Of a stretch of DNA of 25,299 nt, positions 6,001-9,000 are shown piece after piece. The stretch spans positions 1-25,299 of the forward strand of contig BTUM01000103.1 of the NCBI GenBank assembly GCA_045863235.1. Direction: 5' to 3'. Origin of the DNA: Candidatus Xenobia bacterium. GTDB taxonomy: Bacteria; Vulcanimicrobiota; Xenobia; Xenobiales; QWHO01. The position numbers are program-made. The first letter of the stretch is position 1, and each line of letters begins with the position of its first letter.

Positions 6001-9000
6001 GAGCGCCGGACATGCTGATCAATACTCACTTCTCAACCCGCCCGCTAGCGGCGGTGAGCCGGCCCGCGGGCGAGTGCTCGGACCTGTCAGGACCGACTGA
6101 TAGCGTGGAGTTCTCCAATTCGTCGGGGACAAACCAGGTCTCTCTCCGCTTCCAGGGGGTCGCCCCCGTGCCGATGCTCCCGCCGCGTTACCAGGGAGCG
6201 AGTGCCTTCCGCAAGCCTGGCATGGAGGGGGTCATCCACCAGGGACTCACCACCGCCCGTAAGTCGGTCACCGGGCTGATGGCCGGGCTGGCCCTGCTGG
6301 CCTGCGCGGCGCTGCCCATCGACCAGTGCCAGGCCGCCCCCGCCACCGTCATCCCGGCGGCGGCCGTGCAGGCCTACGAGAACCTGACCGGCGAGCAGAA
6401 GCGCGAGATCGCTTCCCAACTGGACGGGACCTCGGGCGTGCTCTGGTTCACGGTGCAGAACCGCCAGGCTTTCATCGACGGCAAGGTGGGCCCGGTCAAC
6501 GTGTTCAACCACCTGCGCGACCAGCTCAAGGACAAGCGTTCCTCGGGCACGATGACCGAAGACTCCTTCCGGCGCCTGTCGGCCGCCCTGAACGCGGCCG
6601 AGAAGCTCACCGCCAAACAGCGCGAGCAGTTGCTGGAGCACTTCGTTCCCCGGCACTGAGGGCACTCGACGGCGGAGCACACCTGGATCGCCTTCACGCC
6701 GCCCCCGGAGCCCTAGTATCGAACATTTGTACGATACCACCGGTCTAAATTCGGAACGTGCGTTCGATTCTTTCGGGCGTGCGGGTTGCTCCCGCACCGA
6801 GCCAGCCTCGAATGCCGTGCGAAAATCGCGGGATCCTTTCGCTGGGCCAGAACCCGAACGGAGTTCATTGGGTAGCCGGGGGGCCCCTCGCTCGCGGCCC
6901 CGCCTTCAGCGCCGTCCCCGGACCTGAGCATCGAACGTTTGTACGATACCGCCGGTATAAATTCGGAACGTACGTTCGATCCTTTCGGGCGTGCGGGTCC
7001 AACGTGGCCTCATGCGGGCGCGTTGCTCCCGCACCGAGCCTGCTCCGGGGCCTTGCGGAAGTCGCGAGGTCCTTTCGGACGGAGCTCCAAAAAGAAAGAA
7101 ACCTCACATCGCTGCGAGGTTTCTTGGTGGGCAGGGAGAGATTCGAACTCCCGTAGCGCGTAGCGCGGCAGGTTTACAGCCTGCTGCCATTGTCCACTCG
7201 GCCACCTACCCGTTTGTTGAGGGACGCGCGCCTCAATATAGCGGCGCCCCCCGGGGATTGTCAACTGCGATCTTCGTCGCCAGGGCTCACGAAGCAAGAA
7301 AGTTTTGGGGCCCCGAGCCGGACTCGAACCGGCGACCTTCCGCTTACAAGGCGGGAGCTCTACCAACTGAGCTATCAGGGCGTTCCCGAAACGGAGACGA
7401 CGCACCCGAAAGTGCGTCGTCGACGCTTCCGACCAGCGGTGCGGTCGACTTACATGCGCTTCTCGCCCAATGTCTTCTCGATCTTGCGTTTCACGCGCTG
7501 GAGCGCGTTGTCGATCGATTTGACGTGGCGGTTCAGCTCCTTGGCCATCTCCTGGTAGGACTTGCCTTCCAGGTAAGAGTGCAGCACCTGGGACTCGAGC
7601 TCGCTGAGGTTCTGCTGGATCTTCTCGCGCAGATCGTCGGACAGCTCGTGGCTGATGAACACCTCTTCGGGATCGGTCACCTTGGTGCCCGACAGAATGT
7701 CGAGCATGGTGCGGTCGGAGTCTTCGTCGTAGATCGGCTTGTTCAGCGAGATATACGAGTTCAGGGGGATGTGCTTCTGGCGGGTGGCCGTCTTGATGGC
7801 CGTGATGATCTGGCGGGTGATGCACAGCTCAGCGAAAGCACGGAACGAGGACAGCTTGTCGGCCCGATAGTCGCGAATCGACTTGTAAAGGCCGATCATC
7901 CCTTCCTGAATGATATCTTCCCGATCTGCCCCCACCAGGAAGTAGGACTTCGCTTTCACCCGAACGAAGTTCTTGTACTTACTGATGAGATATTCCGTGG
8001 CAAACTCGTCTCCATTTTTCGCGAGCTTGACGATCTCTTCGTCGGGCTCGTTCTGGAGGTTTGCCATGTACGTGCTTTGCTGGAGCTTCAACAAACCTTC
8101 GCCCTCCAATTGGCACTAGTCGCGGGGAAAAGTATAGGCCACATTATAGGCAGGTGCTACGACCTCGTCAAGGGAACACTTTCCCTCCCCTGTTCGAGCA
8201 CCCGCCTGTGACAACACTTCCCTTTCCGCGTCCGGATCGAGTTTGCCGACGCTCGACCCGGGCTTCTGCGCTGGAGGGGCCACCATGATTCGAGCCCCGG
8301 ACGCGATTGCCTGCTCATCATAGCACACAGGTTAGGGAAAGTAAACATTCACTCCCGGCTTCCATGACCGGGCTCTACAAGCCAAATCCCATCGCTACGC
8401 CGTTCTGCCTCTTGCAGGAGTGTTGAATTTAATTCAAGGATCGCTGGCGCACAACCTCATACAGGAACAGGGCTCCGCTGACGGACACGTTGAGCGACTC
8501 GACCTTTCCCAGCATGGGAAGCGAAAGCCGGTGCGTGCAGGCGGCGGCTACGGCGGGTCGCATCCCCTCGCCTTCGGCGCCCAGCACCAGCACGGTAGGT
8601 CCGGTCAGATTTGCCCGGTCGAAGAGCGAGGGGCCGCGGGGATCGGCTCCCACCACCTGATAGCCCGAGCGAGCACAATCTTGCAGGACGCGCTCGAGCT
8701 TTTCGCAGCGGGCCACCGGTAGAAACTGGTCGGCGCCGGCGGAGGCCCGCGAGACAGCCGCAGTGAGTCCGCACGAGCCGCGCGTGGAGAGCAGGATGCC
8801 CTGGCAACCGGCCGCCTCAGCGGTGCGGATCAGCGCGCCCAGGTTGTGGGGATCCTGGACTCCGTCCAGAGCCAGCAGCAGGGGCGGACGAGAGCTGCTC
8901 GCCAGAGATTCGAAAAGCTCTTGCAGACTTACGAACTCGCGCGTCGCGAGCTGGGCCACGACCCCCTGGTGATTGCCCCCGCGGGCCAGGCGCTCGAGCC

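Follow-up and report, generated by a model that had tools for sequence, protein, structure and literature searches.

In this non-sporulating Candidatus Xenobia bacterium and in its relatives, a sigma factor of the Bacillus/Clostridium SigH type probably takes on part of everyday transcription beside the usual housekeeping sigma factor. The explanation as a whole, to which we give a probability of about 0.8, is that SigH reads a two-box promoter, RVAGGR-N17/18-cGAA, and is continuously active on a gene set that is separate from, and larger than, that of SigA. According to the textbook view, a bacterium has one housekeeping sigma factor, and SigH is a transition-phase and sporulation factor of the Firmicutes. 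The present case is that of a known sigma factor in an unusual role and at an unusual scale, with a partial precedent in Sporomusa and with a promoter that misses one defining letter. In the proposed mechanism, region 4.2 of the phylum-conserved SigH would read the AGG box and region 2 the GAA box, and transcription would start about 9-13 nt past GAA, which is the start codon itself in roughly two thirds of the cases and would yield leaderless mRNAs. SigA would transcribe sigH, the tRNA genes and at least some ribosomal-protein operons, and SigH, made continuously, would serve a separate and larger set of ordinary genes (~900-1,700 promoters).

The sigH gene and its locus

The genome assembly comprises 8.36 Mb at 66% GC and is 97.6% complete; genomes, loci, families and contigs are labelled G, L, f and C, this genome being G000, and the window is the whole 25,299-nt contig C103 (Table 1). 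The sigH gene lies where the initial annotation had placed it, in the order cysS, rlmB, sigH, tRNA-Thr and tRNA-Tyr, and no extra gene was called between the first three. Its start codon is TTG, with GGAGG at 8103-8107, and an alternative start is the ATG at 8067. The 214-residue product scores 347.8 bits against TIGR02859 (cut-off 294.8) and 363.5 against NF006148 (cut-off 208), and remains far under the RpoD cut-offs, so that it does not group with the primary sigma factors of group 1. SigH is 75-79% identical to clostridial SigH, and in an alignment with L064-L080 the DNA-contact segments, which we take to be regions 2.3-2.4 and 4.2, match those of clostridial SigH letter for letter. The nearest named SigH loci belong to Vulcanimicrobiota/Eremiobacterota, and a search for a solved SigH-DNA structure matched only 3mzy, with no such complex found.

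Table 1 Coordinates of genes and predicted promoters in the window
Feature	Position	Strand	Basis or remark
Weak variant of the SigH-type promoter, good -10 and poor -35 box, 10 nt ahead of the ATG of a hypothetical gene	4012..4036	-	
tRNA-Tyr(GTA)	7125..7211	-	terminator-like hairpin after it at 7096-7125
SigA-type promoter of tRNA-Tyr	7235..7264	-	11/12 consensus
tRNA-Thr(TGT)	7306..7381	-	
sigH, Bacillus/Clostridium-type sigma-H	7450..8094	-	above the cut-offs of TIGR02859 and NF006148
Proximal SigA-type promoter of sigH, TTGACG-17-TATAAT	8143..8171	-	11/12 consensus; same boxes align in L001
Distal SigA-type promoter of sigH, TTTACT-17-TATGAT, extended -10	8317..8345	-	sequence
rlmB, repetitive long N-terminal extension, start uncertain	8429..9811	-	TIGR00186 over cut-off
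cysS	9853..11271	-	TIGR00435 over cut-off from residue 3
SigH-type promoter of cysS, variant, leaderless distance	11281..11308	-	posterior 0.98
Strict AGG-N18-GAA, 11 nt ahead of the ATG of a nitroreductase gene	13683..13706	+	
Strict AGG-N19-GAA, 9 nt ahead of the GTG of a two-gene operon	19255..19279	+	

Since sigH is preceded by two SigA-type promoters, SigA ranks over SigH, as it does in C. difficile, where Table 2 of PMC7438776 likewise gives sigH a SigA-type promoter (P-SigA). No SigH-type site was seen by eye upstream of sigH, and no Rfam family was found in its leader. In three RNA runs taken from two studies, with no DNA run among them, contigs end at 8279, 8294 and 8295, which is 15-30 nt short of the start predicted from the distal promoter and is a weak hint in its favour. 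In the same three runs, contig depth is 31-37 over sigH and mostly below 10 over its neighbours, a measure by which genes cannot be ranked, and the contigs carried no information on leaderless starts.

As for the wider genome, no PF08769 match to Spo0A, which would be expected beside a SigH sporulation regulon, was found in the 97.6% complete assembly. Homologues of lpxA, lpxB, lpxC and bamA are present and fit a diderm envelope. As the initial annotation had stated, rpoD is not in this assembly and is present in same-genus genomes; its absence here counts against our explanation. The assembly also contains no rRNA genes. The SpoU domains of RlmB cover residues 220-451, and its N-terminal extension is Gly/Arg-rich with tandem repeats of ~20 residues each. 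Downstream of the tRNA terminator, between 6700 and 7040, an AT-richer block of ~100 nt is present twice, in imperfect copies (near 6715-6810 and 6928-7045), which may contain operator sites.

The AGG/GAA dyad ahead of genes

The dyad is visible without any gene calls: AGG-N18-GAA-N9/10/11-ATG is found 367 times, compared with 114 and 98 matches at the frame-matched spacers 15 and 21, and the corresponding AGG-N19-GAA form 343 times against 200 and 199 for its frame-matched controls. The earlier statement that it is the top upstream dyad was reproduced with independent calls, made by a codon model blind to promoters and motif (6,918 genes), as AGG-N18/19-GAA is the best of 64 x 64 x 23 dyads in 4,485 upstream regions. 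Spacer 18 occurs in 601 and spacer 19 in 535 of these regions, compared with 222 for spacer 20 and 105-163 for the others. Strict sites exceed the control spacers by ~870, and 624 of them stand 9-13 nt ahead of a start codon against 49 with control spacers. A two-box expectation-maximization (EM) model assigns 1,577 of 4,484 regions to the SigH type, ~990 of them at 9-13 nt from the start (controls 3-85), whereas among operon-internal genes it picks only 35 of 1,646. With a three-class model, the number of regions is 1,688. The number of SigH-type promoters is thus put at ~870 (the strict excess) to 1,700, so that the feature is real and exceeds in size the 1,000-1,100 genes, over half of them leaderless, first reported; the model count takes in variants with a poor -35 box, such as the window site at 4012. 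The cysS gene carries a variant site, either AGG-N19-TAA 9 nt or GGG-N19-GAAT 12 nt ahead of its ATG.

The logo derived by EM reads R-V-A-G-G-R, 17/18 nt, c-G-A-A, with spacer weights of 0.46 and 0.45, and shows the -35 AGG(A) and the 17-18-nt AGGA-to-GAA spacing by which SigH promoters are recognised. It does not extend to GAAT: the base after GAA carries 0.0 bits, and AGGA-17/18-GAAY (235) is about as frequent as GAAR (213), so that the GAAY box of the initial annotation has to be shortened to GAA. Searches for sigma-28, sigma-54, SigB and ECF consensus dyads brought out none that stood out.

The dyad is almost certainly a promoter. It might instead be taken for an artefact of gene calling, a repeated element, the site of an activator or a signal for translation, as GAA at 9-13 nt stands where a Shine-Dalgarno (SD) sequence might stand and AGG resembles part of one, but these readings are very improbable. 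The dyad is seen without gene calls, and its spacers are unique (1,266 different among 1,267 sites, with a near twin for 40 of the 1,266). It also occurs far upstream, with a real SD after it, and is not accompanied by a TANNNT box, while the fixed 18/19 spacing, the strand specificity and an antisense avoidance inside genes (described below) suit a promoter.

Start distance and leaderless genes

The initial annotation held that leaderless genes mostly lack an SD, and this stands: an SD precedes 72 of 1,063 genes with a site at leaderless distance (9-13 nt), compared with 216 of 496 genes with a distal site. At distal sites, A is found exactly 9 nt past GAA in 142 of 463 cases (31%) against 12% just before, and this A peak at GAA+9 has the same edge as the peak of start codons, which lie 9-13 nt past GAA; both fit a putative transcription start at that distance. 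A depletion in the stretch from GAA+9 to the start codon did not reach significance (p=0.07), a point against our explanation. As tabulated for C. difficile SigH (PMC7438776, Table 3), GAA is present in 31 of 40 printed promoters, in 28 of these 31 it lies 8-11 nt before the last printed base, taken here as the start, and T follows it in 20 of the 31, these counts being made by eye.

Ahead of valS, 13 of 14 f1/f2 genomes have kept the dyad while its spacer changed, as against none of 16 f3-f5 genomes, most of which have an SD there. Ahead of minC, the dyad is kept in 17 of 30 genomes, where control spacers give 4 and 4, and minC, ftsZ and frr are SigH targets in the C. difficile tables of PMC7438776. 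Two further candidates gave nothing: cysS has no footprint in relatives, as it mostly sits inside operons there, and upstream of ftsZ, which closely trails another gene, no convincing site was found in five distant genomes. The minC gene was not found in 12 of 12 f3 and 5 of 5 f12 genomes searched.

In mycobacteria and Deinococcus, many mRNAs begin at the start codon and a TANNNT box is needed. Here, in contrast, the SigH type accounts for most leaderless promoters, and a TANNNT class for a smaller number.

Division of genes among promoter classes

Besides the SigH type, the three-class model assigns 766 regions to the SigA type, a soft figure (controls 312-362 when reversed or complemented, 745 when column-shuffled), and 268 to TTTCAG-N10-TANNNT. 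On these figures, the SigH type is ahead of all TANNNT promoters about twofold; it is the commonest promoter, as first proposed, but the several-fold lead over SigA shrinks once weak SigA-type and TTCAG promoters are counted. The classes exclude each other: 13 regions share SigH-type and SigA-type sites against 156 expected, and 7 share SigH-type and TTCAG sites against 78 expected, the latter in line with the near-disjoint TTCAG set of the initial annotation. The third class of ~270 promoters has the fuller form CAG-N5-TTTCAG-N10-TANNNT in G000; its spacer is always 10 nt, its leaderless sites peak at 6-7 nt, and it could belong to an activator acting with RpoD or to a group-2-like factor at C30:52185-53195, whose region 4.2 is altered.

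Among 78 operon heads with homologues of E. coli core genes, 26 are of the SigH type, 8 of the SigA type, 43 of neither and one was unscored, so that the share of core-gene heads with the motif is not above the genome average of 38%. SigH-type heads include murE, murG, ddl, ispU, ispH, fabZ, glmM, recF, dnaE, pyrH-frr, the pur operon and ileS, and are found in five of six tRNA-ligase-like cases located via short motifs or homology, with sites ahead of valS, leuS, ileS, an asnS-like gene and cysS. Distal sites precede ftsA, ftsZ and minC. At rpsT, which was among the targets first listed, a SigA-type and a SigH-type site overlap and are equally good. The tRNA genes are SigA-type in 23 of 46 cases and SigH-type in one of 46. 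Of the proposal that SigH acts as a second housekeeping factor, a mostly leaderless promoter with SigH as its best owner is supported, while an enrichment for housekeeping genes is not (26 of 78 heads), which counts against our explanation, and the tRNA genes go with SigA.

Avoidance of the dyad inside genes

Evidence new here, and expected for a promoter that is always active, is that the dyad is avoided inside genes. AGG-N19-GAA occurs 884 times in sense against 1,573 expected and 991 times in antisense against 2,145 expected, which are depletion ranks 2 and 1 of 4,096 trimer pairs. Spacer 18 is depleted to ratios of 0.75 (sense) and 0.64 (antisense), and spacers 17 and 21 are at ~1. The depletion requires both AGG and GAA, deepens with RVAGG (144 against 723 expected) and with AGGA, and is similar for all four bases past GAA, thus repeating the logo independently. 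The avoidance was also considered as that of a restriction site, a reading we rejected: sites of type I restriction systems have a spacer much shorter than that of this dyad, and the dyad is enriched ahead of genes.

Across 61 phylum genomes, many of them kin and so not independent, whole-genome N19/N22 ratios were worked out by hand. All 21 genomes of this class lie at 0.50-0.81 and all 17 f14 genomes at 0.16-0.28, with 0.32 in f18 and 0.35 in f19. The remaining 21 of 61 genomes bear SigH at ratios of 0.82-1.01, a weak or absent avoidance that counts against our explanation, as does the fact that avoidance peaks in f14, the family with the apparently smallest share of such promoters. In f14 (e.g., G049, L153-L172), AGG-N19-GAA occurs in genes 5 times against 94 expected in 400 kb, and the RVAGG form 0 against 40; in G049, only ~8% of 210 upstream regions match, and many carry a weaker GGG box. 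This f14 share is uncertain, as a free-motif EM on the 210 regions collapsed both with the test spacers and with the controls. A 216-kb sample of G132 showed no in-gene depletion, which also counts against our explanation. With GAAS as the second box, the nine genomes from the sister SigH clade all give ratios of 0.73-0.86, compared with 0.96-1.09 for all ten Bacillota and 1.07 for E. coli. We infer from this pattern a selection against cryptic starts by a holoenzyme that would be active much of the time.

Avoidance and class exclusion also bear on when SigH would act. In B. subtilis and C. difficile, SigH works in the transition phase, as described in PMC3364868 and PMC7438776, and it might here read its promoter only in a long stationary or starvation state, in an RpoS-like expansion, a reading with which the SigA-type tRNA promoters and the lack of a SigH-type site at most ribosomal-protein operon heads agree. 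Yet the classes barely overlap (see above), so that valS, murE, ispU, glmM and recF would be left without a growth promoter within 120 nt, and Bacillota with a transition-phase SigH show no in-gene avoidance. A starvation-only role is thus unlikely, and activity in growth is, overall, probable.

The sigma factor that reads the motif

SigH very probably reads the dyad, and is the best owner in view of its conservation, its contact segments, the spacing, the shared target minC and the failure to find its rivals in some motif-bearing genomes. With 20 sigma-70 region-2 matches in the genome, other readers come to mind: a conserved RpoE-like ECF factor (C50), of a type that the initial annotation had kept in play, which has relatives throughout the class, a WhiG/FliA-like factor (C74), for which no sigma-28 motif was found that it could own and which is 48-71% identical across G000, G006, G037 and G046, and the group-2-like factor (C30), which tracks the motif-richest families. 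Each of them went unfound in some motif-bearing genome: the ECF factor was not found at E<=1e-30 in G046 and G049, nothing in G132 matches the WhiG-like factor at the level of an orthologue, and the group-2 factor, whose region 2 is RpoD-type, is not among the five sigma-70 factors of G006. Between G000, G006 and G046 (seven of eight loci for G046), only SigH (79-91%) and RpoD reach high identity, and the best ECF matches reach 28-40%, so that no ECF factor is common to all. Another reader is accordingly improbable, even more so than a starvation-only SigH.

A point against SigH is the missing T after GAA, given contact segments identical to those of clostridial SigH. It could be speculated that the need for T is relaxed through a higher SigH level or a core enzyme that melts DNA more easily. 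RpoD of same-genus genomes has ordinary regions 2 and 4.2, and both it and the group-2-like factor keep a TANNNT-type region 2. The two also share a ~35-residue insertion in region 3 (L112, L113, L174-L177 and C30 of G000).

Comparison with known systems

SigH of B. subtilis and C. difficile resembles the present factor in family, cysS-rlmB position, AGG box, 18/19-nt spacer, GAA box and start distance, and that of C. difficile also in the targets minC, ftsZ and the frr operon. In contrast to both, there is here no T past GAA and no Spo0A match, the promoters are mostly leaderless and the dyad is purged from genes. Regulon size differs as well, with 41-53 promoters given for C. difficile and 48 genes for B. 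subtilis in the sources consulted, against 900-1,700 promoters here. The closest parallel is Sporomusa sphaeroides KIAC, for which PMC12456013 gives 322 SigH-motif starts (16.1%), including central metabolism; there too, the motif stands at many starts and is assigned by its likeness. According to the same source, SigA accounts for 69.8% of starts, the box is GAAT, leaderless mRNAs number only seven and there are sporulation sigma factors, so that the largest class is SigA in Sporomusa and the SigH type here. SigH-like/ComX factors of non-sporulating Firmicutes, described in PMC3364868 as fast-diverging (20-29% identity) and serving competence, are likewise kept without sporulation, whereas the present SigH is 99.5% identical to that of L001, a locus whose cysS and rlmB are ~50% identical to those here.

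In PMC3533761, sigH is listed among conserved sporulation genes. If two housekeeping factors do divide transcription here, the sporulation role of SigH in Bacillota would have come about as an older, general function was narrowed, and the division of transcription would differ from that known, with a bearing on what SigH did before sporulation. The promoter rules are usable in this phylum, for which a recent predictor gives lists described as often incomplete (75.5% partial; bioRxiv 10.64898/2026.09.23.753901), and in-gene avoidance offers a sequence-only detector of an active sigma factor in uncultured bacteria. A search for literature on SigH or promoters in this phylum, with subscription papers largely outside it, found none. 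The cultured phylum member, which makes the claim testable, is non-sporulating and Gram-negative, and the accessible text of its description does not use the word 'sigma' (PMC9758169).

Spread across the phylum and SigH conservation

SigH is over the cut-off in 115 of 121 phylum genomes, which is suggestive only as a sign that it may be essential; this count and those of the ATG-anchored pattern include the unpublished G122. In four pairs of genomes, SigH is more conserved than the RpoD core each time (96.7/90.3, 90.2/75.4, 89.2/69.2 and 84.0/81.8% identity). When L001 is compared with the window, the identity of SigH is 99.5% although that of its DNA is 84%, and the neighbouring cysS and rlmB are ~50% identical. 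Three motif-rich genomes have no sigH match, namely G031 (where a contig ends in a fragment of it), G039 (where rlmB lies at a contig end) and G001 (rlmB also missing); these are assembly gaps or undecided. In G030, the only SigH match is a 42% paralogue, and rlmB is missing.

The motif itself is more widespread than the initial annotation had it. One matrix was fitted to upstream regions in samples of 166-400 kb (control spacers <=2.4%), and matched 31% of the 613 regions from this genome, 24% of 162 in G046, 15% of 212 in G006, 8% of 210 in G049 and 21% of 106, mostly leadered, in G132, compared with 5% of 108 Desulfosporosinus regions and 1% of 165 E. coli regions. The near-absence from small f3 genomes does not hold, as the motif was found there, in other classes and in a Sysuimicrobiota genome. 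The class restriction seen with the ATG-anchored exact pattern was an artefact, arising because in-gene depletion masked promoter sites. Whole-genome counts of RVAGGR-N17/18-GAA in 22 outgroup genomes were swamped by chance matches.

A tentative extension, which we regard as somewhat less probable than its opposite, is that Eremiobacterota and a sister clade labelled Sysuimicrobiota/Armatimonadota would have two housekeeping sigma factors, RpoD for stable RNA and the lesser part of the genes, and a constitutive and essential SigH for the largest class of mRNA promoters, which would read a minimal AGG/GAA dyad so easily that coding sequence has been purged of it. In a quick SigH tree, whose root is unreliable and which gives no direction, the Eremiobacterota and Sysuimicrobiota-type clade stands apart from Bacillota (support 99). 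A second, diverged SigH-like match of 160-315 bits is present in G042, G047, G050, G052, G056, G060, G063 and G030. Finally, this genome encodes a divergent SigH-like paralogue (27% identity) at C11:113983-115578 (L090), back to back with a FliA/WhiG-family gene.
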